A stretch of 31,993 nt of DNA from assembly GCA_049317625.1 (NCBI GenBank), contig JBMOHX010000001.1, forward strand, positions 1-31,993, given 5' to 3'. Position numbers and translations under genes: made by a program. The stretch's first letter is position 1, and each line of letters opens with the position of its first letter. Below are positions 1 through 13,567 of this stretch, piece after piece. Under the pieces are notes generated by a model that did no database searches, was not told the DNA's origin, and was given only the letters and a program-made list of their open reading frames with translations. Source of the DNA: Phycisphaerales bacterium (GTDB taxonomy: Bacteria > Planctomycetota > Phycisphaerae > Phycisphaerales > UBA1924).

Positions 1-216
1 TGCGGCACCGCCTGCGCCTGGCAGGCCGACGGCTGCTACGCCGACTACGACAACAACGGCGGCATCGACGGCGACGACGTGATCGCCTTCTTCGCTGACT
101 GGGATGCTGGCGGCAGCTGCGCCGACGTCGATGGTGCCAACGGCACCGACGGCGACGACGTGATCGCCTTCTTCGGCACTTGGGACGCGGGTGGCGTTGG
201 CACCCCCGGCTGCTAA
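1..216 (+). CDS. 3' end (partial) of a GC-type dockerin domain-anchored secreted protein
   Basis: Not in the ORF track. Frame 1 reads CGTACAWQADGCYADYDNNGGIDGDDVIAFFADWDAGGSCADVDGANGTDGDDVIAFFGTWDAGGVGTPGC-TAA(214-216): two EF-hand-like dockerin loops and a terminal GC. Same motif as the C-termini of 496-2721 and 3818-6013. Confidence 0.9.
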   Translation, partial: CGTACAWQADGCYADYDNNGGIDGDDVIAFFADWDAGGSCADVDGANGTDGDDVIAFFGTWDAGGVGTPGC

Positions 217-495: not shown

Positions 496-2721
496 ATGCG
501 CAGTACGGTGTGGCCCGCTTGTGCCGCGGCTGTTGTTGCGGGGTGTGGGCTTGCGAATGCTCAGGAGTTTTCGTCTGGCCCCATTGCCGTGCCGATCCCC
601 GACAATCCGACTGTGCAGTCTCGGATCACGGTCGCGCCGTCGATTGTGATCGGCGACCTCGATGTGAGGGTGAACATCAACCACACGTGGGACACCGACC
701 TTGATATCGCTCTCGTGCCGCCCTGGGGCACGGAGTATCTCCACCTGTGTTCGGACGTCGGTGGTTCGGGTGACAACTTCACGAACACGGTCTTCGATCA
801 GGACGCGAGCATCGCGATCAACCTCTCTGCCGCGCCGTTCAACGGCCGCTTTCTCCCTGAGGGTGGCCCGATCAACTGGGTTGGTTCGATCGCACTCCCG
901 CCGGTCGCGATGGCCAATCTGGATGGAGTGAACGGTCGATCCACGCAGGGGGATTGGACGCTGTTGATTGACGATGACGCCGCGGGTGTGACCGGCACGC
1001 TCACCGAATGGGCGCTGCTTGTGACCGCGGGCGGCGGACCTACCCCTCCAACGGGTATTGCGACACTGAGCCCCGCTGCCGGCGCGCCGGGCGCGGCGGT
1101 TCTTGCGACCGTCGTGGTGACACCGGGGACGAACCCCGCGAGCAGCGGGCTGAGTGTCAATGCCGATGCTTCTGAGATCGATGCTGGGAGCATCCCGCTT
1201 CGTGATGACGGCGTTGCGCCCGATTCTGTCGCGGGAGACAACGCCTTCAACGGTCTGATCACCGTCGGGCCGCTCGCCGTGACCGGGCCGCGCCAGGTGC
1301 GGTTCACCGTCGCCGATCAGCAGGGGCGATCGACCGAAGGAGGTACGCAGTTCGCGGTGCGGAACCGCGCCGCGCCGAACGACGCGTGCGGCGGCGCGGA
1401 GGTGATCCCCTCGGGCTTCTTCCCGTACGAGTCATCGCCTGTGTTCGTGAGCGGGAACGCCGCTGCGGTGGAAGCGGGCCTCGTTTGCTCGCAGGGTGGA
1501 GCGACCAACGCGAACTCGTCGGTGTGGTACCGATTCCAGCCAACGCTCGACGGTTTGTACCGGCTTTCCACCTCGGAGAATCTCGCGACGGGCAACACGC
1601 TGGCGGACACCGTGCTCGCGGTGTACGACGGGACACCGGGTGGTTGCGCGGCGCTGACGGCGCTCGCGTGCGACGACGACTCGGGCGTGCCTTCCAACGG
1701 GAGCGATCTCCAGTCGGACCTGACGGTGCAACTGACGGCGGGCCGCGTGTACTTCATTCAGATCGCGAAGTGGGGCGGCATCCGGCCCACCGACTCCGAC
1801 ACCACCGCGATTTTCGTTGACCTCATCATCCCCGCGGGGGCGTGCTGTCTCGGCGAGGGTTGCGAGGTTCTCGCCCGGGCCGACTGCGAATCGCGCGGTG
1901 GCGCTTACCTGGGCGACGGCGTGGTCTGCCGCGAGCCGAGCACCTACCAGATGGGCCCGATCGCGTCGGCGTTCGAGGACATCTCGGAAACCGGTGCGTC
2001 GGTTCCGGCGAGCGACGATTCCTTTGCGCCGGTTCCGCTGGGCTTCGAGTTCGGTTTCTTCGACGTGCCCCAGTCGGGCGCGTTCATGTCGAGCAACGGG
2101 TTTCTGTCCTTCGGGGTGGGGAGCGCGTCGCTCGCCAACTCCCCCATCCCCTCGCCCACCATCCCCAACAACGCGATCTACGCCCTCTGGGACGACCTCA
2201 ACCCGGACGCGGGCGGTACGCTGAAGTACGAGACTCGCGGCGAGGGCCAAGAGCTCAGGTTCATCGCGCAATGGACGGGGGTGCCGCAGTTCGGGCAGAA
2301 CGACGCGAACACGTTTCAGATTGTGATCTTTCAGAACGGCAACATCGAGCTGCGTTATCAAACCGTCTCCGCGTTCAGCGACGCCGACGCGACCGTTGGA
2401 GTTGAGAACGCCGACGGGGACCTCGCGTACAGCGTGAATGGCTCGGCGGTGCAGCCCAACGTCGCGTTCGGGGTGCGGTTGATCCAGGGAACCTCGAACT
2501 GCGCCTCGCCCGCGTGTCCCTGGGCGGGTGACGGGTGCTTCGCGGATTACAACAACGATGGCAACGGCATCGACGGTGACGACGTCATCGCGTTCTTCGC
2601 GGACTGGGACGGCGCCCTGGGGTGCGCGGACATCGACCAGGCGAACGGGGTGGACGCGGACGACGTGATCGCGTTCTTCACGGCGTGGGACCAGAGCGGT
2701 GCCGGCTTCCCGGGGTGCTGA
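496..2721 (+). CDS. Secreted multidomain GC-type dockerin-anchored protein (proprotein-convertase P-like domain, choice-of-anchor-X-like, Cys-rich ACC motif, nidogen-like domain), about 741 aa
   Basis: Start moved from 289 to ATG 496 (AAAGGA at 481-486; signal peptide MRSTVWPACAAAVVAGCGLANAQ). P-domain motifs IPDN...HTWDTDLDIAL...GDWTLLIDDDAAGVTGTLTEWAL; LRDDGVAPDSVAGD; PNDAC; GACC...ADC...GG.YLGDG..C; IYALWDDL; C-terminal dockerin ending FPGC. Domain names come from motif recall, not an HMM search. Confidence 0.8.
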   Translation: MRSTVWPACAAAVVAGCGLANAQEFSSGPIAVPIPDNPTVQSRITVAPSIVIGDLDVRVNINHTWDTDLDIALVPPWGTEYLHLCSDVGGSGDNFTNTVFDQDASIAINLSAAPFNGRFLPEGGPINWVGSIALPPVAMANLDGVNGRSTQGDWTLLIDDDAAGVTGTLTEWALLVTAGGGPTPPTGIATLSPAAGAPGAAVLATVVVTPGTNPASSGLSVNADASEIDAGSIPLRDDGVAPDSVAGDNAFNGLITVGPLAVTGPRQVRFTVADQQGRSTEGGTQFAVRNRAAPNDACGGAEVIPSGFFPYESSPVFVSGNAAAVEAGLVCSQGGATNANSSVWYRFQPTLDGLYRLSTSENLATGNTLADTVLAVYDGTPGGCAALTALACDDDSGVPSNGSDLQSDLTVQLTAGRVYFIQIAKWGGIRPTDSDTTAIFVDLIIPAGACCLGEGCEVLARADCESRGGAYLGDGVVCREPSTYQMGPIASAFEDISETGASVPASDDSFAPVPLGFEFGFFDVPQSGAFMSSNGFLSFGVGSASLANSPIPSPTIPNNAIYALWDDLNPDAGGTLKYETRGEGQELRFIAQWTGVPQFGQNDANTFQIVIFQNGNIELRYQTVSAFSDADATVGVENADGDLAYSVNGSAVQPNVAFGVRLIQGTSNCASPACPWAGDGCFADYNNDGNGIDGDDVIAFFADWDGALGCADIDQANGVDADDVIAFFTAWDQSGAGFPGC

Positions 2722-3779: not shown

Positions 3780-3807
3780 TTGTTTGAGACCGCCGATCCG
3801 TTATGGT
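3780..3807 (+). promoter_or_regulatory. Putative sigma70-type promoter TTGTTT-N16-TATGGT
   Basis: -35-like 3780-3785 and -10-like 3802-3807, 10 nt before ATG 3818. Confidence 0.35.
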
Positions 3808-3817
3808 AGTGCGACGC

Positions 3818-6013
3818 ATGTGGACCTCCCGCGATCTCCGATTCGCCGCTTGGACCTGGCCCCTCTGGGCGGTGTGCGCGGCCGGTGCGCAGGTGTACTC
3901 CTCGGGCGGGGTCAACACGCCGATTCCCGACGCGGGGGTGCTGTCGTCGGTCATCCATGTTGAGGCGGGCCCCGGGTCGATCGGAACGCTGCGCGTCCGG
4001 GTCCGACTCGAGCACTCGTGGGACGCGGACCTTGATCTCGCGATCATCCCTCCGGGGGCGACCGCGTACCTGCACCTCGCGAGCGATCTCGGGGGAAGCG
4101 GCGACGGATTCGATGCGACGACGTTTGACGGGGCGGCTTCGAAGTCCATCCGCGAGGCGGGGGCTCCCTTCGCGGGCACGTACCGGCCGGAGGGTGGGCC
4201 GATGATCTGGAACTTCGGCCCCGGGCTGCCGGGTTTGGCGCTCGACCAACTCCAGGATCTCTCCGGCGGGCCCGCCGATGGGGATTGGACTCTGCTCGTC
4301 GCGGACGACTTCCTGGGGGAGACCGGCACGCTCGTGGAGTGGGCGCTGATGTTCTCCGGTCCCGGAGCACCGTCTCCGATGCAAGCTGCGCTCACGTTGT
4401 CGCCGGGAGCGGCGGGGCCCGGCGCATCGGTTGTCGCGGAGCTGCGGGTGCAGTTCGGGCAGTTCCCGCTGAGCACTGGTGTGGTTGCCTCGCTGGACGC
4501 GACCGCGGTCGGCGCGGGCGTGGTTCCGCTGGCGGACGATGGCGTTGCTCCGGATGAGTCGGCCGGCGACCGGACCTTCACGGGCCAGCTCGCGATCGGC
4601 GGGTCCGCACCGCCGGGGCCGGCGGCGCTCGTGTTCGCCGCGGCCGATGCGCAGCTCCGCACGGCCACTGGTTCGGCGGTGGTGACGGTGCTTCCGGCGC
4701 CCGCGGTGAACGACCGGTGCGAGGAGGCTGTGGAGATCGGGCAGGGCGCACTTCCCTACGTCGCGCCGGCGCAGCCCGCGGCTGGGAACTCCGTGGACTG
4801 CGAGCATCCGCTCGCGTGCGCGGCGGGGGGCGGGGAGAACGCGGCGCGGTCGGTGTGGTACCGGTTTGTCTGCGAGCAGAGCGGTGCGTATCTCGTCTCA
4901 ACATCGCAAGCCCGTGCGCCCGGATGTACCGTGGCCGACACGGTGCTGGGGGTGTACGAGTCGCAGGCCGGGGATTGCGCAGCGCTGATTCCTCTGGCGT
5001 GCGACGACGATTCGGGGAGCGGGAAGGCGGCGGAACTCGAGATCAATCTGGCGGCGGGGGGTGTGTATTACGTGCAGGTCGCGGAGTGGGCACCGGGGGG
5101 CGGCGCGGCGGGCGAACTGTCGGTCTCATTCGAGCGCTCGGTGGTCGTCGGGGCGTGCTGCACGGTGACAGGCTGTGCGCGGGTGACCGCCGACGAGTGC
5201 GCGGCGGTGGGAGGGAGTTACCTCGGCGATGGCATCGGGTGCGCTCCGGGGAGCGGGCTGGTGCTGGAAGGCGCGGCGTACGCGTTCGAGGACATCGCGC
5301 AGTCGGGCGCGGTGCTGTTGCTCGGTGACGACGCGAGCGTGCCCGTGCACCTGGGGTTCGAGTTCGGGTTTCTGGGCGGCTCCTACACGGCGTGCAACGT
5401 GGGCTCAAACGGGCTGATCACGTTTGGTTCGGCGTCGACGACGTACCTGAACACGGCGATCCCCTCTGCGGCACCACCGAACGCGGCCGTGTACGCGCTG
5501 TGGGATGATCTGGATCCTGGCGCGGGGGGCGATGTGCGCTTCGAGGTCCGCGGCGCTGCGGGGGTCGACCTTCGGCTCATCGTGCAGTGGAGCATGGTTC
5601 CGCAGCACGGCTTCGGCGACGCGAACACGTTTCAGGTGGTGCTGATGGAGGGCGGATCGGCCTTCCTGTCGTATGGCGTGATCAGCGCGTTCAGCGATGG
5701 AGACGCGACGATCGGCGTGGAGAGCGCGGACGGCACTATCGCGCTGTCGCGTCCGGCGTCGCTTGTGGTGACCGGGACCACGCTCCGCCTTTGGACTGCG
5801 CCCGGCGTTGCGTCGTGCGCGGTCTGCGCGTGGGCGGTGGACGGGTGCGGCGCCGACTACACGAACGACGAGGCGGTGGACGGCGACGACGTCATCGCGT
5901 TCTTCGGCGATTGGGACGGTGGGGTGACCTGTGCCGATGTGGACCTCTCCGGATCGGTGGACGGGGACGACGTGATCTGGTTCTTTCAAAGGTGGGATTC
6001 CGGCGGCTGCTAA
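3818..6013 (+). CDS. Secreted GC-type dockerin-anchored protein, full-length paralogue of 496-2721, about 731 aa
   Basis: Same domain order: P-like domain (HSWDADLDLAII...GDWTLLVADD), LADDGVAPDESAGD, VNDRC, GACC motif, VYALWDDL, dockerin ending WDSGGC. Signal-like N-terminus. Start at 3818 or 3803 is uncertain. Confidence 0.8.
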   Translation: MWTSRDLRFAAWTWPLWAVCAAGAQVYSSGGVNTPIPDAGVLSSVIHVEAGPGSIGTLRVRVRLEHSWDADLDLAIIPPGATAYLHLASDLGGSGDGFDATTFDGAASKSIREAGAPFAGTYRPEGGPMIWNFGPGLPGLALDQLQDLSGGPADGDWTLLVADDFLGETGTLVEWALMFSGPGAPSPMQAALTLSPGAAGPGASVVAELRVQFGQFPLSTGVVASLDATAVGAGVVPLADDGVAPDESAGDRTFTGQLAIGGSAPPGPAALVFAAADAQLRTATGSAVVTVLPAPAVNDRCEEAVEIGQGALPYVAPAQPAAGNSVDCEHPLACAAGGGENAARSVWYRFVCEQSGAYLVSTSQARAPGCTVADTVLGVYESQAGDCAALIPLACDDDSGSGKAAELEINLAAGGVYYVQVAEWAPGGGAAGELSVSFERSVVVGACCTVTGCARVTADECAAVGGSYLGDGIGCAPGSGLVLEGAAYAFEDIAQSGAVLLLGDDASVPVHLGFEFGFLGGSYTACNVGSNGLITFGSASTTYLNTAIPSAAPPNAAVYALWDDLDPGAGGDVRFEVRGAAGVDLRLIVQWSMVPQHGFGDANTFQVVLMEGGSAFLSYGVISAFSDGDATIGVESADGTIALSRPASLVVTGTTLRLWTAPGVASCAVCAWAVDGCGADYTNDEAVDGDDVIAFFGDWDGGVTCADVDLSGSVDGDDVIWFFQRWDSGGC

Positions 6014-6133
6014 GCCCGCCCTCAAGAAAATCCAAGCCGAGCCCCAACGAACGGCTCCCCCGGCGCATACCAGAGATGAAGCACGTGACGTGCCCATGAA
6101 TCTGGGATCGGGCCTTGGGGAGGTGTCGCGCGG

Positions 6134-6691
6134 ATGGACTACCGAGACAGCAGCGACGAGTCGCTCATGGAGACGACGCGTGGAGGGTCGAGGGCCGCGT
6201 TCGAGGTGCTCATCAGGCGCTTCTCGACGCGGCTGCTCACCTTCCTCGTTCGGCTCACGGGGCGGTTGCATTCCGCGGAGGATCTCTTTCAAGAGACCTT
6301 CGCGGCGGTGTGGACCAGGCGGGAGACCTACAAGGTCGGCCGCGCGTTCAAGCCGTGGCTGTACGCCATCGCGGTGAACAAGTTCCGCGAGGGTGTGAGG
6401 CGTGCACCGGAGCTCACGGTGGATGTGGACCCTGATCACGCGTCGTGGGCGAGGGGCGAGGAGGCCGGCGGGGGGCGGGAGCTCGCGGCGGCGACAACGG
6501 CCGCGCTCGCTCGGCTGAGCGACCGGCAGCGGGAGGTGCTGGTGCTTCACCTCTACGGCGGCTTGAGCTACGCGCAGGTTGGCGAGTGCCTCGACTGCGG
6601 GGAGGCGACCGCGCGGGGTCACATGTTCCAGGCGTTGGCGGTTCTGCGGCGCGAGATGAGGGTGGCGGAGTCAAAGGAGGCGGCGCGGTGA
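6134..6691 (+). CDS. ECF-family (sigma-70 group 4) RNA polymerase sigma factor, 185 aa
   Basis: Region 2: AFEVLIRRF...AEDLFQETF..VW...FKPWLYAIAVN. Region 4: LSDRQREVLVLHLYGGLSYAQVGECL...TARGHMFQA. GGAGG at 6119-6123. Confidence 0.93.
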   Translation: MDYRDSSDESLMETTRGGSRAAFEVLIRRFSTRLLTFLVRLTGRLHSAEDLFQETFAAVWTRRETYKVGRAFKPWLYAIAVNKFREGVRRAPELTVDVDPDHASWARGEEAGGGRELAAATTAALARLSDRQREVLVLHLYGGLSYAQVGECLDCGEATARGHMFQALAVLRREMRVAESKEAAR

Positions 6692-9600
6692 TGAACCCGG
6701 ACACGAACAACGAGAAGCTGAATGAAACGGCGGATGCGCTGGTGTTTGGGCTGTTGAACGAGAACGAGGCGGCCCGCGTTCAGGCCCGCGCGGCGTCGGA
6801 TCCCGCGATGGCCGCGGCGATCCAGAGCGCCCGGGCTCGGCGTGAGGCGTTGCTCGCGCTGCCGACGGCGGAGCCATCGAGCGCGCTCATCGCGGCGGCG
6901 TTGAACTCGGCCCAGGCAGATGCCCAGCGTGTTGCGAGGCGGCACGGCCGCCGGCGCAGCATCTCACGCGGGATCGGAGGGGTGCTCGCGTTCGCGGTCG
7001 CCGTGATCGCGTGCTTTCACGCGTGGATCGACGGGTGGAAGCCGCCGGTGGTCGGTGTGCAGCTTGTCGCCCAGCAGGAAGTGAACGCGGGATCGCGCGG
7101 CTCGATGCGGGTTGTGGTGCAGGACGTCTCCGGCGAAGAGCCCGCGACGGGGAAGAACGTGAGTCTCGTGCTGCGCGGCGGGTCGGGGGGCGCGGTGACG
7201 CTCGCGTCGTTCAAGACTGATGCGAACGGGACGGCGTCGCCGAGCTTCGAGTACCCCGACTGGGCCGCGGGTAACTACACGCTTTCGGTCGAGGTCGAGG
7301 GGCAGACGCACCTGGAGCGCACCGTGGAGCTTAAGCGTGAACGCCGCGTGATGCTCAGCACCGACAAGCCGCAGTACCAGCCTGGGCAGACGATCCACGT
7401 GCGTGCGCTGGCGCTGACCCGGGGCGACGGGAAGCCCGCCGCGAAAGAGTCGGCGGTGTTCAGCGTGGTGGACCCGAGCGGGAACACGATTTTCAAGAAG
7501 TCGGGGGCGACCAGCGAGTTCGGGATCGTGTCGGCCGACTGCGAGCTCGCGAGCGAGATCCGGGAGGGGCCGTACACGATCCGCGCGGACATCGGGACGA
7601 CGCAGTCTTCCCGCACGGTGGAGGTGAAGAAGTACGTCCTGCCGAAGTTCAAGGTCGGGCTGGAGCTTGATGCGCAGTTCTACACGCCGGGCGCGACGGT
7701 GAAGGGGACGATCGACGCACGCTACTTCTTCGGCAAAGCCGTGAGCGGCAAGGTCGAGGTGGTTGTGCGCCCCATCGGCATCGTCACCGACGAGATCAAG
7801 GCCCCGGCGGTGAACCTCGACGCCGACGGCAGGGGCGCGTTCAGCGTCGAGCTGCCGAAGAAGCTCTTCGGGCGCGAGCAGGACGGGGGCGATGCGCGGG
7901 TGGAGATCGTGGCGACGGTCCGCGACACCGCCGGGCAGGAGGTCAAGCGCGTGGCCTCGCGCGTCGTGAGCGCGGCTGCGCTGCGGATGGAAGTCGTCCC
8001 CGAGTGCGAGACTCTTGTCGTGGGCGTGCCGCAGAAGATTCACGTGTTCGTGACCGCGCCGGATGGATCACCCGCGTCGGCCCGCGTGGGCGTGGGCGAT
8101 GGCGAGGGGATCGCGACCTCCGACCAGGGGCTCGCGACGATCGAGTGGACGCCGACACAGGACAACGAGAAGCTCGATGTGTGGGCGAAAGCGGGCAAGT
8201 CCCGCGTGCACCGCGTGGTGTCGCTCAGCTCGGTGCGCGAGGGGTTCGTGCTGCGGACCGACGGCGCATCGTACGAGGCGGGCGGGACCATGGTCGTGAC
8301 TGCGCTCGGTGCGGGCGTGCAGCCGGTCTTCGTGGATCTCATCAAGGACGGGCAGACGGTGGCGACGTACGTCGTCGAGATGAAGGAAGGTCGCGGCGAG
8401 CTCGCGGTTGATCTCCCGGCGGAGCTCAGCGGCGCGGTGATGGTCGAGGCGTACCGGTTCAACGCGATGGGTCTGCCGGTGCGCACGAGCCGACCGGTGC
8501 TGGTGCGGCCCGCGACGCGGCTCAATGTGGCGGTCGGGGCGGACAAGCCCGAGCACCGGCCGGGCGAGGGGGCCTCGCTCACGTTCACGCTCACGAGCGC
8601 TGACGGCAAGCCGGCACCGGGCGCGGTGAGCCTCGCGGTGGTTGACGAGGCGGCGCTGAGTGTGATGAAGGACCGGCCGGGGATGGAGAGCGCGTTCTTT
8701 CTGCTGGAGGACGAGCTGCTCAAGCCCGCGGCGGTCTTGTACCGGGAGGACATGCTGTCGCCGCGGCTGACGAAGGAGCAGTCGAACAGGGCGAGCTTCG
8801 GCGCGGCGATGTCGCGCGGGAGCGTGCGGGGTGTGGACCCGGCGACGCGGCTGGAGCAGCTCGGGTTCGGTCGGGTGTCGCGGAATGAACTGTGGAGGTA
8901 CCTGGAGAATGGCGGGGCGGGGCTCGCGCCCGCGGACTTCGGCTCGCCCAACGTGAAGGCGCTCCTGGCCTCGAGCCACGGGGAGGCGGAGTGGCGGTTC
9001 GAGCACGAGCGTCGGGAGGCGATGAGCTCGGTTTACGGCGCGTGGGCCATCACGGTGGTGGCCGCGGTACTCGCGGGTTTGGTGGTGCTGGGTTTGTACG
9101 TGCGAAGCACAGCCATCATGTTCGCGGTGGTGATCGCGCTGCTGGCCCTCGTGACGGCGCTGATGCTCCCGGCCCTGGGCCAGGCCCGGTCCTCTGCCCG
9201 GGGCCTGAGGGGGCAGATGCCCCCCGACGCGGCGGCGGGGCCTTTCTTTGGAGGAATGCCGACAACCGACGCGCAGCTCCCGATGCCGATGATGAACGCG
9301 TCGGCGGGCCCGTCCAAGTCGCCGTTGTCTCCGACCCGGGTGCGTGAGTGGTTCCCCGAGACACTCGTGTGGGCTCCGGAGCTGATCGCGGATGAGAACG
9401 GGAAAGCGACGATCGGCTTCGATTTTGCGGACTCGATCACGAACTGGAAGGCTCTGGGGAGCGTGGTCTCGCCGACGGGTGCGCTCGGGTCTTTCGATGC
9501 CGATCTGCGGGTCTTCCAGCCGTTCTTCGTGGACGTGAACGCGCCGGTTGCGCTGGTGCAGAACGATGTGATTGACCTGCCGCTGGTGGTGTACAACTAC

Positions 9601-11451
9601 CTGGAGACGCCGCAGCGGGTGAAGCTGAACGCGGAAGTCGGCGACTGGTGCGTGCTGCTGAGCGAGCCGGACTTTGAGATCGACCTCAAGCCCGGCGAGG
9701 TGCGCTCGGTGGGGCTGCGGCTCCGCGCGACGAAGGTGGGCGTGCATTCGCTGCTGGTGAACGCGGGGGCGGACGGGGTTGCCGACGCGATCCGCAAGAC
9801 GATCGAGGTGGTGCCCGACGGTGTGCCGGTGGAGCAGGTGGTGAGCGCGTCGATCGACGATGCGCTGGAGTCTGAAGTGGTGCTTCCGCCCGGCGCGATC
9901 GGGGGCAGCGAGCGGTTGCTGGTGCGCATCTTCCCGTCCACTTTCAGCGAGGTGCTCGGCGGGCTCGATGGGATCCTGGCCATCCCGCACGGGTGCTTCG
10001 AGCAGACGTCGTCGACCACGTATCCCAATGTGCTCGCGCTCGATTACCTGCGCACGACCGGCAAGGCTGCGCCGGAAGTTGAAGCCCGCGCACGGCAGTA
10101 CATCCACCTCGGGTACCAGCGGCTGTTGAGCTTCGAGGTGGCGGGCGGCGGGTTTGACTGGTTCGGCCGTGCGCCCGCGAACCTTGTGCTCACCGCGTAC
10201 GGGCTCATGGAGTTCGAGGACATGGCCCGCGTGCACGACGTGGACCCGGCGCTGATCGAGCGGACGAGGAAGTGGCTCCTCTCCAAGCGTGCGGCCGACG
10301 GCTCGTGGAACGCCGATGCCCACATGCTCAACGACGGGCTGGCGGGGAGTGTGCACCGGGGCGGCGACCTCACCCTCGCGACCACGGCGTACGTGGCGTG
10401 GTCGGTCTTCGGGAACGGCCAGGCATCGGAGGAAGCTGAGTCGACGCTGAACTGGCTGCTCTCGCACGAGCCTACGACGGTTGACAACCAGCACACGCTC
10501 GCGCTGATGTGCAACGCGCTTCTGGCGATGTCGCCGAAGGACGCGGGTCCGTATCTTGCGCGGCTGGTCTCGCTGGCGGAACGCGCGGAGAACGGGAAGT
10601 CGGCCCGGTGGTCGATGCCCGTCGAGGCCCGGACCACGTTCTACGGTCGCGGCGGCTCGGCCGAGATCGAGACGACATCGCTCGCGGTGCTCGCGCTGAT
10701 GAAGGCGAAGCAGGAGTCTCCGCTGTGCCGTTCGGCGCTGACATGGATCACGGCCCAGCGTGACGCGCGCGGCGCGTGGCACTCCACCCAAGCGACAGTG
10801 CTCGCGCTCAAGGCGCTGCTTTCGGCTTCGGGGCGTGCCCTCGGCGGTGACGGGCAGAAGGACATCCGCATCTCGGTCGACGGGCGCGAAGTCCGCAAGG
10901 TGTCTATCGAGGCGGATCAGTCCGACGTGGTGCAGCTGGTGGACTTGAGCAAGGAGTTCGCGGCGGGCGCTCGCGCGGTGCGCGTTGAAGACGTGACCAA
11001 GTCGGGGTGCACGGCGCAGATCACGACCCGGGCGTTCGTCCCGCGTCCGGACGACACGGTCGGAGAAGCCACGCTGGCGGTGGACGTGGTGTACGACAAG
11101 TCCGAGCTCAAGGTGGGGGACACGCTGAAGGCCAAGGCCACTGTTCGGAACCGGGCGGCGGAGGCTGCGCCGATGGTGATGGTGGATCTGCCGGTGCCGG
11201 CGGGCTTTGCCCCGGATCTCGACGCGTTCGATGGGCTGCGGGAGAAGGGTGTCATCGCGCGGTACGAGGCGACGCCGCGATCGGTGATCGTGTATCTGAC
11301 GTCGATCCCGGCGGGCGGCGCGGTGAGGCTGGACTACGGGATGCGTTCGACGATGCCCGTGGAGGTGACGACGCCGGGCGCGGCGGTGTGGGAGTACTAC
11401 AACCCGGCGAACCGTGGTGTGGGTCGATCCGGGCGCGTGAAGTCCTTGTGA
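6691..11451 (+). CDS. Alpha-2-macroglobulin (thioester protein) with N-terminal anti-sigma-like domain and TM helix, 1586 aa
   Basis: ATG 6691 overlaps the sigma stop (TGATG) and has SD AAGGAGG about 10 nt upstream. A2M motifs: LSTDKPQYQPGQT, VKKYVLPKFKV, VREWFPETLVW, DSITNW, FQPFFVD, thioester GCFEQ (9991-10005), GYQRLLSF..GGGFDWFG, LTAYGL, STQATVLALKAL, MVDLPVPAGF, WEYYNP. Confidence 0.93.
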   Translation: MNPDTNNEKLNETADALVFGLLNENEAARVQARAASDPAMAAAIQSARARREALLALPTAEPSSALIAAALNSAQADAQRVARRHGRRRSISRGIGGVLAFAVAVIACFHAWIDGWKPPVVGVQLVAQQEVNAGSRGSMRVVVQDVSGEEPATGKNVSLVLRGGSGGAVTLASFKTDANGTASPSFEYPDWAAGNYTLSVEVEGQTHLERTVELKRERRVMLSTDKPQYQPGQTIHVRALALTRGDGKPAAKESAVFSVVDPSGNTIFKKSGATSEFGIVSADCELASEIREGPYTIRADIGTTQSSRTVEVKKYVLPKFKVGLELDAQFYTPGATVKGTIDARYFFGKAVSGKVEVVVRPIGIVTDEIKAPAVNLDADGRGAFSVELPKKLFGREQDGGDARVEIVATVRDTAGQEVKRVASRVVSAAALRMEVVPECETLVVGVPQKIHVFVTAPDGSPASARVGVGDGEGIATSDQGLATIEWTPTQDNEKLDVWAKAGKSRVHRVVSLSSVREGFVLRTDGASYEAGGTMVVTALGAGVQPVFVDLIKDGQTVATYVVEMKEGRGELAVDLPAELSGAVMVEAYRFNAMGLPVRTSRPVLVRPATRLNVAVGADKPEHRPGEGASLTFTLTSADGKPAPGAVSLAVVDEAALSVMKDRPGMESAFFLLEDELLKPAAVLYREDMLSPRLTKEQSNRASFGAAMSRGSVRGVDPATRLEQLGFGRVSRNELWRYLENGGAGLAPADFGSPNVKALLASSHGEAEWRFEHERREAMSSVYGAWAITVVAAVLAGLVVLGLYVRSTAIMFAVVIALLALVTALMLPALGQARSSARGLRGQMPPDAAAGPFFGGMPTTDAQLPMPMMNASAGPSKSPLSPTRVREWFPETLVWAPELIADENGKATIGFDFADSITNWKALGSVVSPTGALGSFDADLRVFQPFFVDVNAPVALVQNDVIDLPLVVYNYLETPQRVKLNAEVGDWCVLLSEPDFEIDLKPGEVRSVGLRLRATKVGVHSLLVNAGADGVADAIRKTIEVVPDGVPVEQVVSASIDDALESEVVLPPGAIGGSERLLVRIFPSTFSEVLGGLDGILAIPHGCFEQTSSTTYPNVLALDYLRTTGKAAPEVEARARQYIHLGYQRLLSFEVAGGGFDWFGRAPANLVLTAYGLMEFEDMARVHDVDPALIERTRKWLLSKRAADGSWNADAHMLNDGLAGSVHRGGDLTLATTAYVAWSVFGNGQASEEAESTLNWLLSHEPTTVDNQHTLALMCNALLAMSPKDAGPYLARLVSLAERAENGKSARWSMPVEARTTFYGRGGSAEIETTSLAVLALMKAKQESPLCRSALTWITAQRDARGAWHSTQATVLALKALLSASGRALGGDGQKDIRISVDGREVRKVSIEADQSDVVQLVDLSKEFAAGARAVRVEDVTKSGCTAQITTRAFVPRPDDTVGEATLAVDVVYDKSELKVGDTLKAKATVRNRAAEAAPMVMVDLPVPAGFAPDLDAFDGLREKGVIARYEATPRSVIVYLTSIPAGGAVRLDYGMRSTMPVEVTTPGAAVWEYYNPANRGVGRSGRVKSL

Positions 11452-11673
11452 GAGCGTCCGAGAACGGTTCGCAAGGCCCGAGAAAAGCGCCGCTGGCGCC
11501 GTGAGCGCGGAGATGTGGCTGGGCGGTGCGCGAGGAACCATTGTTTGTGCTTGCCTCTTTCGACCCTGACGGGAGAATGTCGGCAGAGGAGAGAGAGGAA
11601 CAAAGACCAAAGCCCCCGTGTGCGTTTCCGCGCGCAGGGGGGAATCGCCGGTGCGTGAACCCGGCGCCTCTCG

Positions 11674-11690
11674 ATGAACATGTCGTTCAT
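11674..11690. promoter_or_regulatory. Palindrome ATGAAC-N5-GTTCAT, possible operator upstream of the PEP-CTERM gene
   Basis: Perfect 6-bp inverted repeat in the intergenic region, 56 nt before ATG 11747. No regulator identified. Confidence 0.3.
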
Positions 11691-11746
11691 TCCTTGCGAT
11701 CGGTGCGCGTCGTTTTGTTGTGCGCACTTTGAAGAGAGAGACTGAG

Positions 11747-12385
11747 ATGAAGAACAGCATGATTCTTGCGGTCGTCGGCGCCGCCGCCGCGGTTTCGGTC
11801 GCGCAGGGCGCGGTCGTCACGGCGAACTACACGGGTGATTACGGTCGCCAGGTGCAGACCAGCATGGGCAACTACCAGACGGTGAAGTTCACCTGGACGC
11901 GCGTCGATGCCCCGGGCCCGGGCGTTGACACGACGATCGCGTCGACCTTCAACACGTACTGCGTCGAGATCAACCAGCACGTCAGCGGCGGGAACGACTA
12001 CACGTACAACGTCGTCTCGGCCGCGGCTCACGGCTTCTCCCCCGTGCAGGAGGCCCTCCTGGGCCGCCTCTGGTGGAGCTACTTCGCGCAGATCAACACG
12101 GCCGTCGAGTCGTCCGCGTTCCAGGTTGCGGTGTGGGAGATCGCGCTCGACAGCGGGCTCGACTTCGCGGGCGGTGGTCTGACGATCAACGCTCCGGCGG
12201 ACACGATCGCCCTCGCGTCGTCCTGGCTCAGCGCGATCACCAGCGCCACGTACGCTGGCGCCGCCGAGTCGATCGTGGTGCTCGAGAACGGAAGCGCTCA
12301 GGACCAGATCACCGTGGTCCCGGCTCCGGGCGTGCTCGCTCTGGCGGGCCTCGGCGCTCTGGCGGCGGGTCGTCGTCGCCGCTGA
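11747..12385 (+). CDS. Small PEP-CTERM (exosortase-target) surface protein, 212 aa
   Basis: Signal peptide MKNSMILAVVGAAAAVSVAQG; core motifs FNTYCVEINQ and FQVAVWEI; C-terminal VPAPGVLALAGLGALAAGRRRR. Confidence 0.88.
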   Translation: MKNSMILAVVGAAAAVSVAQGAVVTANYTGDYGRQVQTSMGNYQTVKFTWTRVDAPGPGVDTTIASTFNTYCVEINQHVSGGNDYTYNVVSAAAHGFSPVQEALLGRLWWSYFAQINTAVESSAFQVAVWEIALDSGLDFAGGGLTINAPADTIALASSWLSAITSATYAGAAESIVVLENGSAQDQITVVPAPGVLALAGLGALAAGRRRR

Positions 12386-12408
12386 ACGCGGTCTTGCAAG
12401 TGAAGATT

Positions 12409-12446
12409 CGGACCGGGCCGAGACCTTCTCGGCTCGGTCTGTTTTT
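12409..12446 (+). terminator. Rho-independent terminator
   Basis: 15-bp stem CGGACCGGGCCGAGA / TCTCGGCTCGGTCTG (two G-U pairs), CCT loop, then TTTTT. Lies between the convergent PEP-CTERM gene and trpS. Confidence 0.85.
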
Positions 12447-12487
12447 GGATGAGCGGAGCGATCGTCCGCGCGCAGTGGGCGGGCGAA

Positions 12488-13567
12488 TCAGGTCAGGGTG
12501 CGCGGGCCGAAGTCGAGCTTCATCGCCTTCTTCGCGAGGTAGAGCGTCTCTTCGGCGAGGGCGTTGGCCTTGCGGACGTGGGCGCGGATGAGATCGACGA
12601 CCATCCGGTCACCCTCGGCGCCGTCGAGCTTGGCGCGGCGCTGGCGCATGGGTTCGAGGAGGGCATTGATCGCCTCGCCGAGTTCCTGCTTGATGTGGCC
12701 GTCGCCGATGTTGTCACCGGCGGTGTAGCGTTGTTTGAGTTCGGCGGCGCGGGACTCGGTGAGAAAGGCCTCGCAGAACTTCATGAGGATGTTGTTGGGA
12801 TCGCCGGGTTCGGTGGGGCTCTGGCGGCCGGTGGTGATCTTGTTGATCTTCTTCTGCACTTCCTTCGCGGAGTCGTTGAGGAAGATCGCGTTGCCGAGGC
12901 TCTTGCTCATCTTGTTGATGCCGTCGATCCCTGGGAGGCGTGCGACGCGCCCGATCTTGGCCTTGGGCACGGGGAAGACGCCGCCGGCCTTGACGTGCTC
13001 CTCGACCGGGACGCGGTTGCCGACGCCGCAGTAGACCTGGTTGAACTTCCCGGCGACGGCGCGGCACATCTCGATGTGGGCCTCCTGGTCTTCGCCCACG
13101 GGCACGAGCTCGGGGCGGAAGGCGAGGATGTCGGCGCACTGGCCGACGGCGTACATCGGGAAGCCGAAGCTGTAGGTGTCGCCCAGTCCCTTCATGTCGA
13201 TCTCGGTCTTGATCGTGGGGTTGTTCATCACCCGGTTGAAGGGGAGCAGCATCGCGAAGTACCAGCTGAGCTCGGCGATCGCGGGGATCTCGGTCTGGAG
13301 CACGAAGACGCTGCGCTCGGGGTCGAGGCCCACGCTCAGCCAGTCTTTCACGATGCCGATGGTGTTCTCGCGGATCTGGTCGGTCTTCTCTGCGAGCGTC
13401 GTGAACGCGTGCATGTTCGCCACGAGGAAGTAGCAGTCGTAGTCGTCCTGCAGGCGGACGCGGTTCTCGAGCGAGCCCACCCAGTGGCCCAGGTGGAGCC
13501 CGGTCGAGGTGGGGGTGTCCCCTGTGAGAATGCGCGGCCGGCCCGAGGAGATGGTGGCGTTGGTCAT
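12488..13567 (-). CDS. trpS: Tryptophan--tRNA ligase
   Basis: ILTGDTPTSTGLHLGHWVGSL (HIGH), QCADILAF, VPVGEDQEAH, KMSKSLGN (KMSKS). Confidence 0.96.
   Translation of the reverse strand: MTNATISSGRPRILTGDTPTSTGLHLGHWVGSLENRVRLQDDYDCYFLVANMHAFTTLAEKTDQIRENTIGIVKDWLSVGLDPERSVFVLQTEIPAIAELSWYFAMLLPFNRVMNNPTIKTEIDMKGLGDTYSFGFPMYAVGQCADILAFRPELVPVGEDQEAHIEMCRAVAGKFNQVYCGVGNRVPVEEHVKAGGVFPVPKAKIGRVARLPGIDGINKMSKSLGNAIFLNDSAKEVQKKINKITTGRQSPTEPGDPNNILMKFCEAFLTESRAAELKQRYTAGDNIGDGHIKQELGEAINALLEPMRQRRAKLDGAEGDRMVVDLIRAHVRKANALAEETLYLAKKAMKLDFGPRTLT

Follow-up and report, generated by a model that had tools for sequence, protein, structure and literature searches.

A predicted ECF sigma/anti-sigma pair of Planctomycetota in which the anti-sigma domain is fused to a membrane-anchored thioester macroglobulin

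ECF sigma/anti-sigma pairs are a major mode of bacterial signalling, the inputs of which are mostly unknown. Thioester macroglobulins are known, to our knowledge, as traps or tags and not as receptors. A 31,993-nucleotide stretch of DNA (the window) from a freshwater planctomycete with a genome of 4.5 Mb brings the two together, as an ECF sigma gene runs directly into a gene for an alpha-2-macroglobulin (A2M) protein. This raises the question whether the N-terminus of the A2M protein serves as the anti-sigma factor of the adjoining sigma factor, as the original prediction for this DNA had proposed, and whether the trap could act as its sensor. The features of the locus are compiled in Table 1.

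Table 1. Features of the sigma/A2M locus in window coordinates.
Feature	Position (nt)	Strand	Basis
Candidate ECF-type promoter	6024-6069	+	Family motif and alignment with L002
ECF sigma gene	6134-6691	+	185 aa ORF
Shine-Dalgarno sequence and stop/start overlap	6674-6693	+	Direct sequence reading
A2M gene	6691-11451	+	1586 aa ORF
Predicted cytoplasmic anti-sigma domain (residues 1 to ~82) and basic stop-transfer RRHGRRR (83-89)	6691-6969	+	Profile, alignment and complex model
TM helix 1 (residues ~94-113)	6970-7029	+	Kyte-Doolittle scan
MG1 to MG6a, extracytoplasmic	7030-8670	+	Pfam and AF2
Helical hairpin of two TM-length helices (residues ~780-832) at the bait position	9028-9186	+	Kyte-Doolittle scan and AF2
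Disordered Pro/Met/Ala-rich bait-like linker (residues ~833-885)	9187-9345	+	Model pLDDT <50
MG6b/MG7, CUB, thioester domain, C-terminal receptor-binding-type domain	9346-11451	+	Pfam
PEP-CTERM protein gene	11720-12385	+	Weak PEP-CTERM match
Strong terminator-like hairpin	12409-12441	+	Sole terminator-like site in 5900-12500

Direct reading of the sequence bore out the proposed overlap with a strong Shine-Dalgarno sequence. The sigma stop codon (TGA, 6689-6691) and the A2M start codon (ATG, 6691-6693) share the sequence TGATG, and AAGGAGG (6674-6680) is located 10 nt upstream of the ATG. The same TGATG overlap is kept in a Phycisphaeraceae locus (L002, 67% identical), and other Phycisphaerae-like loci display sigma/A2M overlaps of 4-26 nt. 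Neighbours of the A2M gene in the window encode RsmH, P-domain proteins and a PEP-CTERM protein. The PEP-CTERM gene is conserved (78-79%) in just the two closest loci, L002 and L045, and may represent a lineage-specific third gene of the operon. No family-wide conserved neighbour other than the sigma gene was found. Among sequencing runs, the window sequence was present in freshwater metagenome DNA runs alone and in none of the RNA runs.

Pfam searches with the sigma protein returned Sigma70_r2 (E 3.5e-15), Sigma70_r4 (E 8.6e-11) and nothing else. Region 3 is absent, and with 185 aa made up of regions 2 and 4 alone the protein corresponds to a group 4 ECF sigma factor. Consistently, the sigma70-ECF model TIGR02937 scored 74 bits with a cut-off of 42.9. 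None of the NCBIfam equivalogs or subfamilies reached its cut-off, the best being PRK12513 with 108 bits compared with 206. A profile of A2M-linked sigma factors, which also matches SigW, SigH and RpoE, gave 220 bits with the window protein and no more than 128 bits with the ~20 further ECF sigma factors that the genome encodes. In a tree that included 19 paralogues from the genome, 30 of the 35 A2M-linked sigma factors fell into one supported clade. The sigma factors of the window and L002 form a long-branch pair, which joined the main A2M-linked clade in 72% of the bootstrap trees.

The candidate promoter upstream of the sigma gene consists of an A-rich element (6024-6032), a -35-like CCCAAC (6043-6048), a 15-nt spacer and a -10-like CGCATA (6064-6069), and these three elements are the conserved blocks in an alignment of the window with L002. 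At least 27 of 35 family loci carry the motif TTCAAC-N15-CGCATA at a constant spacing ahead of the sigma start codon, compared with no more than 5 in shuffled sequences. PWM matches of at least 19 bits were confined to the promoter position in the loci, apart from one 20-bit match in L029. The exact sequence CAAC-N15-CGCATA is found once in the 4.5-Mb genome, in front of the sigma gene. The window promoter is weaker than the consensus: its -35 element deviates at two positions, and the PWM gives it 8.8, compared with 21-40 for the training sites. Since a conserved ECF-type site precedes the sigma gene and is present almost nowhere else in the loci, these sequence data suggest that the operon is autoregulated by its own sigma factor. 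A search of the window genome with a PWM derived from the promoters of relatives revealed no convincing second site (top matches at most 18 bits versus 21-40), and in five other genomes the degenerate promoter pattern was no more common than the reversed control.

The original prediction had described the A2M protein as devoid of a cleavable signal or lipobox, and this description held: the first 90 residues contain neither a hydrophobic stretch nor a lipobox. A cleaved N-terminal signal peptide was rejected because these residues lack a hydrophobic core. Residues 1-120 produced a weak match to the NCBIfam anti-sigma model NF052375 (E 2e-5, far below the cut-off). The domain aligns column for column with homologues carrying an HxxxCxxC motif; the N-termini of these homologues exceed the Pfam zf-HC2 threshold, whereas the window segment falls short of it. 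In the columns of the zinc motif the window protein displays A-x3-D-x2-M instead of H-x3-C-x2-C, and all four zinc ligands are gone. HxxxCxxC is kept in 94 of 118 homologues (80%), and the remaining 24 still have the domain. The window copy retains all positions of the anti-sigma domain that are invariant or nearly so. When the family profile was compared with solved structures, RslA (3hug_B, E 3.5e-4) and RsiW (5wuq_C, E 6.4e-4) were matched. Judged from these comparisons, the most fitting description of the N-terminus is a class I anti-sigma domain that descends from ZAS domains and no longer carries their zinc ligands. An RskA-type domain, to which the segment had been likened, did not find support, as no RskA family was among the Pfam or NCBIfam matches to residues 1-120 and the nearest relatives carry ZAS domains.

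Modelling of the sigma factor together with the A2M N-terminus yielded an ipSAE of 0.77 in three runs, while the best of three controls reached 0.00. Of 80 solved complexes 58 reached this mark, as did 2 of 110 mismatched pairs. The score is to be read with the caveat that a model may merely reproduce known structures where a family has solved relatives. The predicted interface spans residues 20-61 in region 2 and residues 117-179 in region 4 of the sigma factor and takes in the invariant anti-sigma residues D15, R50, P58, E61 and L66. The model thus supports a clamp of the anti-sigma domain between sigma regions 2 and 4. Sigma binding by the zinc-less window copy in particular is predicted from the model and the retained interface residues.

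The N-terminal domain, the first TM helix, the hairpin at the bait position and the GCFEQ motif are common to over 100 homologues (~1550-1650 aa, 40-68% identity). Members of the family occur across Planctomycetota and fall into hundreds of sequence clusters, and some database entries name them 'anti-sigma factor RsiW'. A sigma gene is located directly upstream in 38 of the 40 loci that have the domain and sufficient flanking sequence. None of the 13 outgroup A2M loci without the domain (L047-L057, L059 and L060) has a same-strand sigma gene directly upstream; here the matches to the window protein begin at residue ~200-219, and weak opposite-strand sigma matches were restricted to L047 and L056. 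Conservation of the sigma-A2M pairing, a further point of the prediction, was thereby established. The TGATG overlap and this adjacency indicate that the N-terminal domain is encoded beside its cognate sigma factor. One locus of a selenocysteine sister clade (L063) has the domain and an upstream sigma gene; the other five loci analysed from this clade gave no sigma match, the domain being absent from at least four of these, and the N-terminus of L067 is ambiguous. At the thioester site the family carries a cysteine and the sister clade a probable selenocysteine. In a search for a selenocysteine insertion hairpin in the sister clade, single sequences folded into hairpins, but RNAalifold calculated no consensus for six sequences.

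Four independent lines of evidence support the view that the sigma factor and the N-terminus of the A2M protein are cognate ECF and anti-sigma partners: the ZAS homologues, the profile match to RslA and RsiW, the gene adjacency that tracks the domain, and the complex model with its controls. This part of the original prediction is backed by sequence and modelling.

Downstream of the first TM helix, Pfam assigned MG2 (residues 220-312), MG3 (314-387), a weak MG4, A2M_BRD (525-657), A2M (891-979), TED_complement (1083-1376, E 1.4e-43) and A2M_recep (1493-1575), six of these families being above the cut-off (MG2, MG3, A2M_BRD, A2M, TED_complement and A2M_recep). AF2 modelled residues 505-1000 with beta-sandwiches at pLDDT >90. 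The thioester motif GCFEQ (residues 1101-1105, nt 9991-10005) is invariant in 118 of 118 homologues. By its sequence the ectodomain is thus a complete thioester macroglobulin of the complement/A2M/TEP type with an intact GCFEQ, as had been read from the window, and both thioester formation and protease trapping are predicted. Its closest solved chains are human A2M, CD109, TEP1, A2ML1 and C3 (E 9e-61 to 2e-44), and ECAM chains were absent from the 60 best solved-structure matches.

The proposed N-terminal layout, a basic RRHGRRR followed by a single TM helix, proved correct for these two elements and incomplete in the number of helices, as the hairpin in the bait region adds two more. The position of the first helix is conserved family-wide. 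It is followed by a conserved juxtamembrane motif running into MG1, which starts just ~10 residues past the helix. AF2 placed the long helices of the hairpin at residues 764-803 and 806-840 (pLDDT 77-90). A hydrophobic hairpin at this position is conserved across the family, and a crude hydropathy scan counted three TM-like segments in 86 of 118 members. In homologues, the second hairpin helix passes the Pfam DUF1559 N-terminus model, and the family includes copies both with and without this pilin-like helix. The adjacent bait-like linker has a length of 32-84 aa in the family (median 47.5) with variable sequence and ends at the conserved motif RVREWFPETL. According to the models, the bait region would be pinned to the membrane by the additional helical hairpin.

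The locus resembles established class I systems such as SigW-RsiW (5wuq), SigL-RslA (3hug) and RpoE-RseA/ChrR. Sigma and anti-sigma factor are co-transcribed, an ~80-residue cytoplasmic N-terminal domain is followed by a basic stretch, a TM helix and an extracytoplasmic part, and a clamp between sigma regions 2 and 4 is predicted. In contrast to the small extracytoplasmic domain of these ZAS-type proteins, the window protein exposes a thioester macroglobulin of 1470 residues; it also has two extra membrane helices and has lost the zinc ligands. With human alpha-2-macroglobulin (7von, 6tav), CD109 (9fx2, 8s3o), TEP1 (4lnv), A2ML1 and C3 it shares the MG order, the bait position, the RVREWFPETL-type motif, the CxEQ thioester, the TED and the C-terminal domain. 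Like CD109 it is attached to the membrane, although by an N-terminal TM helix and the bait hairpin instead of a GPI anchor. Unlike these metazoan proteins, it is bacterial and contains a cytoplasmic domain predicted to bind a transcription factor.

Bacterial A2Ms are presumed to guard the envelope against proteases, and ECAM/YfhM is encoded with pbpC. The window protein has in common with E. coli ECAM/YfhM and the thioester-less YfaS/MagD that a large macroglobulin faces the periplasm at the inner membrane. In contrast to ECAM/YfhM, it is linked to a sigma gene and has neither a lipoprotein signal nor pbpC or mag-operon neighbours. Assignment to the type I bacterial A2Ms (ECAM/YfhM) was rejected, as the lipobox and the pbpC neighbour are missing. 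An anti-sigma factor that is itself the receptor, proposed here by analogy, is a concept shared with RsiV-sigmaV (lysozyme) and RsgI-SigI (polysaccharide), the ectodomain folds of which are unrelated. In RsiV and RsgI the encounter of the ectodomain with an outside agent licenses regulated intramembrane proteolysis, and the RsgI ectodomain is autocleaved. No description of an ECF factor with an anti-sigma::A2M fusion was found in the searched literature. Neither the main text of the ECF reclassification paper nor the class I anti-sigma paper mentions macroglobulin, A2M or MG2, and a preprint on a 'CAGE complex' was discarded as a prior description since it concerns a different fold.

How might such a protein signal? 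We consider it about an even bet that the two genes constitute a self-regulated signalling unit in which a sprung trap frees the sigma factor and turns the operon back on. The sigma factor would be co-produced with a membrane protein and would be held at the cytoplasmic face of the membrane by the N-terminal ~90 residues of the latter. An outside protease would cleave the ~50-residue bait, the trap would change shape and the thioester would fire. The spent or altered protein would then be cleared by regulated proteolysis comprising a periplasmic cut, an RseP-type intramembrane cut in the first TM helix and degradation of the cytoplasmic stub. The released sigma factor would transcribe its own promoter (CCCAAC-N15-CGCATA), and sigma factor and fresh trap would be re-made. 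In this scheme the stimulus, the course of proteolysis and the regulon are inferred, as is the release of the sigma factor by the firing trap. The window genome encodes an RseP-type M50 protease, but so do 14 of 14 control genomes, and its presence hence does not discriminate. RseP-type proteases normally require prior trimming of the periplasmic part. Bait cleavage alone would leave MG1-MG6 on the anti-sigma helix, which makes a simple protease-sensor version harder. More tentatively, and with somewhat less than even odds, the complement-like thioester protein may be a bacterial transmembrane receptor whose trap is fired by a predator, competitor or phage-borne protease. The membrane-pinned bait would then be the trigger, the signal would reach transcription via the fused anti-sigma domain, and the circuit would re-arm itself.

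Other explanations have to be weighed against signalling by the sprung trap. The operon might form a stoichiometric set-point loop without any outside signal, in which the A2M-fused domain titrates the sigma factor translated along with it and sigma activity reports biogenesis, insertion or turnover of the macroglobulin and not an attack. A promoter found solely in front of the operon itself, a sigma:anti-sigma ratio fixed by translational coupling and the lack of any further conserved neighbour or target fit this idea. We regard it as unlikely. Were the state of the trap irrelevant to the fused module, one would hardly expect the thioester to persist in all 118 homologues, or the family to keep a variable, disordered bait. 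Moreover, a closed negative loop without input would keep the operon near off permanently.

It is similarly improbable that the ectodomain senses a cue other than a protease, be it thioester attachment to a nucleophile of a foreign surface or cell wall, pulling, membrane perturbation via the hairpin or, in zinc-bearing homologues, cytoplasmic thiol or redox stress on the ZAS domain. Closest solved relatives that include the opsonin-type TEP1, C3 and CD109, more than protease traps, point in this direction, as does a membrane hairpin in the bait, which is unusual for a trap of soluble proteases. The bait-like linker, however, is as long and as disordered as protease baits typically are. Some ZAS proteins, such as RsrA, sense redox through HxxxCxxC, the motif kept in most homologues (80%), but the window copy is devoid of the Cys/His ligands, so that a redox cue is inapplicable here. 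That the N-terminal segment is a mere membrane anchor, a decayed anti-sigma domain that lost sigma binding in this lineage with adjacency as a leftover, would agree with the four vanished zinc ligands, the missed zf-HC2 model and the sub-threshold NCBIfam match, but is very improbable given the 24 motif-less members that keep the domain, the retained invariant and near-invariant positions, the TGATG coupling in L002 and a complex model that passes its controls.

Natural comparisons exist within the family, namely zinc-bearing versus zinc-less domains, Cys versus probable Sec sites, and presence or absence of the pilin-like helix. If the state of the trap controls the sigma factor, ECF signalling would gain a new class of input, and a bacterial A2M would for the first time be assigned a part in signalling. 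The locus would then also provide a compact switch that responds to proteases and could be transferred to other hosts. Such a circuit would have no known counterpart in ECF systems or thioester proteins and, if true, would amount to an innate-immunity-style loop of sensing and replenishment.

Homologues of the A2M protein were searched among 5.8 billion proteins, which gave 783 matches at E ≤ 1e-3 among 8000 candidates scored. The best 120 of these measured 1450-1660 aa and covered 97-100% of the query, in most cases at 40-45% identity and in one relative at 68%. They belong to Phycisphaerae, Tepidisphaerales, Gemmatales, Pirellulaceae, Planctomycetaceae and Singulisphaera. Their aligned N-termini follow approximately the pattern H-x-VDDYLH-x(13)-H-C-x2-C-x2-C ... 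LP-x-x-EAS-x-x-LI and are, as judged from this pattern, classic zinc anti-sigma (ZAS) domains. For a few of the homologues, databases already give a Pfam zf-HC2 tag or, from JGI, the name 'anti-sigma factor RsiW'. Behind the ZAS domain come a basic stretch, a TM helix and a conserved juxtamembrane motif, with the first MG domain directly after it. The HxxxCxxC motif was kept in 94 of 118 homologues and lost in 24, including the window copy and its 68% relative. The zf-HC2 gathering score was passed by two homologue N-termini and missed by that of the window. A profile of 35 N-termini matched the solved anti-sigma factors RslA (3hug_B, E 3.5e-4) and RsiW (5wuq_C, E 6.4e-4), and all invariant or near-invariant alignment columns (D15, L22, A43, A47, R50, P58, E61 and L66) are present in the window copy. 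From these comparisons we take the window N-terminus to be a class I anti-sigma domain, descended from the ZAS type but now without zinc. A relationship to RskA-type anti-sigma factors, which the original prediction had suggested, could not be demonstrated; ZAS-bearing homologues and the RslA/RsiW profile matches were found instead.

The window has a G+C content of 67-70%. The TGA stop of the sigma gene (6689-6691) has one base in common with the A2M ATG (6691-6693), and an AAGGAGG sequence lies 10 nt upstream of this ATG. A longer, GTG-initiated A2M frame from 6445 owes its extra part only to overlap with the sigma frame; the homologue N-termini align from ATG 6691. The A2M gene is single-copy in this genome. 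Both an N-terminal hydrophobic core and a lipobox are absent, in agreement with the proposed lack of a cleavable signal. The earlier description of a charged N-terminus, RRHGRRR, a TM helix and a complete A2M with GCFEQ was borne out, but had omitted two further TM-length helices (Table).

Table. Features of the sigma/A2M locus and of the thioester codon in sister-clade loci.
Feature	Position	Strand	Details
Promoter candidate	window 6043-6048 and 6064-6069		CCCAAC, 15 nt, CGCATA
ECF sigma gene	window 6134-6691	+	ATG start, 185 aa, Pfam Sigma70_r2 and Sigma70_r4 only
A2M ORF	window 6691-11451	+	1586 codons
Charged, helix-prone segment	A2M residues ~1-82		
Basic stretch	A2M residues 83-89		RRHGRRR
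Hydrophobic helix	A2M residues ~94-113		
Two-helix membrane hairpin	window 9028-9186, A2M residues ~780-832		bait region, conserved across homologues
Thioester motif	A2M residues 1101-1105		GCFEQ
TGA at thioester codon	L063:4531, L065:5122, L066:4457		
TGA at thioester codon	L064:2547, L067:2463, L068:2436	-	

Adjacency of the two genes was examined in 60 loci, taking one genome per species. Of the 40 loci whose match reached the N-terminus and whose upstream flank was 600 nt or longer, 38 had an ECF sigma gene directly upstream on the same strand, and these sigma factors were 36-64% identical to that of the window. The predicted conservation of the pair thus held, with two exceptions, the Isosphaeraceae-like loci L040 and L061. 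In both (L040:3512 onward) a ZAS domain is fused to A2M and the preceding 4 kb contain no ECF sigma gene; any partner sigma would be encoded elsewhere. The L040 A2M frame looks frameshifted after about 685 codons. Spacing between the genes ranged from overlapping to near-abutting in Phycisphaerae-like loci (-1 to -26 nt) and from 16 to 207 nt in Planctomycetia. Thirteen outgroup A2M loci from Myxococcota and Chitinophagales (L047-L057, L059 and L060) matched only from about residue 200-219 and had no same-strand sigma gene directly upstream, with weak opposite-strand matches only in L047 and L056. In a sister clade, L063 is the sole copy whose N-terminus is ZAS-like, and an ECF sigma gene lies upstream of it. 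No sigma match was obtained in the remaining five sister-clade loci fetched; a signal peptide or short TM anchor opens the protein in four of them, and the N-terminus of L067 is ambiguous. Sigma adjacency therefore goes with the anti-sigma domain rather than with the macroglobulin.

The window sigma passed the ECF superfamily model and scored 220 bits on a profile of A2M-linked sigma factors, on which the roughly 20 other ECF paralogues of the genome reached at most 128 bits. In the tree, 30 of 35 A2M-linked sigma factors formed one supported clade; the window sigma and that of L002, a Phycisphaeraceae MAG whose 67% orthologue shows the same gene overlap, form a pair on a long branch that joins this clade in 72% of bootstrap trees. 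The distribution of the A2M is patchy, and no match at E ≤ 1e-50 to the window query was found in 16 sampled, mostly 98-100% complete genomes of the window organism's own family, order and class. Typical planctomycete pairs also occur in MAGs labelled Bipolaricaulota, Alcaligenaceae, Krumholzibacteriia or Alphaproteobacteria (L005, L017, L023, L027, L058 and L061), which probably reflects mis-binning or mislabelling and not true spread to such groups.

The sigma/anti-sigma complex was predicted from 35-row alignments of each partner. As anticipated, an ASD-like interface was obtained, with ipSAE values of 0.77, 0.76 and 0.77 compared to 0.00 in three controls. In calibration, 58 of 80 solved complexes but only 2 of 110 mismatched pairs attained such a score, counts that are only rough because the alignments were custom-made. 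On the sigma factor, the predicted interface comprises residues 20-61 in region 2 and 117-179 in region 4, the regions contacted in solved class I pairs; on the anti-sigma domain it comprises residues 11-21 and 46-81, with the invariant positions among them. As related complexes have already been solved, the model indicates likeness to known pairs, short of proof, for sigma binding by the A2M N-terminus.

Bipartite words were enumerated in the 230-nt regions that precede 35 of the sigma genes. TTCAAC-N15-CGCATA occurred in up to 15 loci versus at most 5 in shuffles, and in 27 of the 35 loci when up to two mismatches were allowed. The motif ended 19-44 nt before the start codon in 26 of the 27, often preceded by a T-rich stretch; the window copy ends 64 nt before the sigma start. 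A PWM derived from these sites reached at least 19 bits at this upstream position in 23 loci, with one weak match elsewhere on both strands of all loci. Alignment of the window and L002 upstream regions displayed conserved blocks at an A-rich element, the -35, the -10 and the ribosome-binding region, separated by variable spacers. Exact CAAC-N15-CGCATA has its sole copy in the 4.5-Mb, 86%-complete genome at this site. A conserved site before the sigma gene is what positively autoregulated ECF operons usually show, and suggests such control here. No second target emerged from a PWM scan of this genome or from degenerate-pattern counts in five others. One relative has at least two sigma/A2M pairs and, in addition, a third site (L081:3694-3720, minus strand) that shares the extended -35 (TTCAACGGATTG ... 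CGCATA) and has a T-rich stretch ahead of it. The gene 118 nt further downstream (L081:1794-3575, minus strand) is lipoprotein-like, contains a VWA domain and is a possible regulon member there.

Several neighboring genes were recorded. A PEP-CTERM gene directly 3′ of the A2M gene (11720-12441 including a terminator-like hairpin, the only strong one of the region) is conserved only in the closest relatives, at 78-79% in the two nearest versus 67-69% for A2M itself. Upstream lie two large paralogous ORFs (289-2721 and 3803-6013) with proprotein-convertase P-domain and weak NIDO matches and no recognised protease domain; an RsmH (MraW methyltransferase) gene sits between them.

Pfam identified MG2, MG3, MG4 (weakly), A2M_BRD, A2M, TED_complement (E 1.4e-43) and A2M_recep, and GCFEQ was invariant in 118 of 118 homologues. 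The closest solved chains in sequence were human A2M (E 9e-61), CD109, mosquito TEP1, A2ML1 and C3, and E. coli ECAM was not in the best 60 matches. The bait position lies between the end of A2M_BRD (residue 657) and RVREWFPETL (residue ~885). In homologues it contains a helical stretch, two TM-length helices and a disordered linker of variable sequence (32-84 residues, median 47.5). An AF2 model of residues 505-1000 displayed MG sandwiches (pLDDT > 90), two long antiparallel helices (764-803 and 806-840, pLDDT 77-90) and disorder at 840-885. The second hairpin helix of many homologues resembles a DUF1559/pseudopilin N-terminal helix and passes the Pfam model, without the glycine a prepilin peptidase would need; it is degenerate in the window copy. 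This arrangement points to a cytoplasmic N-terminus and an external MG1-6a part, followed by a hairpin that crosses the membrane and, again on the outside, by the bait and the remaining domains.

In many sister-clade planctomycete A2M genes the precise position of the thioester cysteine codon is occupied by an in-frame TGA (G-TGA-FEQT), and the frame stays open before and after it. SelA turned up in each of the four TGA-bearing genomes tested; a search of the window's genome, whose thioester codon is Cys, did not find it. Six sequences yielded no consensus selenocysteine insertion hairpin. The TGA is a candidate selenocysteine codon.

There is strong support that the sigma factor and the fused domain belong together as a cognate pair, co-produced from a promoter that probably depends on this sigma itself. 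What becomes of the anti-sigma domain may be determined by the state of the trap. In the simplest chain, a cut in the bait would cause a conformational change and thioester firing, proteolysis would remove the altered ectodomain, an RseP-type cut within TM1 would follow, and the freed sigma would drive renewed synthesis of both proteins. An M50 protease is present in the genome but is universal. This chain has a weak point: a cut in the bait leaves MG1-6 attached to TM1, and release of the sigma would call for another cleavage in the periplasm or for some other mechanism. Alternatively, the pair could form a signal-free set-point loop, or respond to a non-protease cue such as surface attachment, force or the membrane. 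The N-terminus might also be a decayed anchor. Redox sensing through the ZAS motif cannot hold for the zinc-less window copy. No description of an anti-sigma/macroglobulin fusion was found among the roughly 8.4 million papers and preprints searched, several key planctomycete ones not included. We regard the sigma/A2M system as an ECF/anti-sigma pair with a new class of ectodomain.
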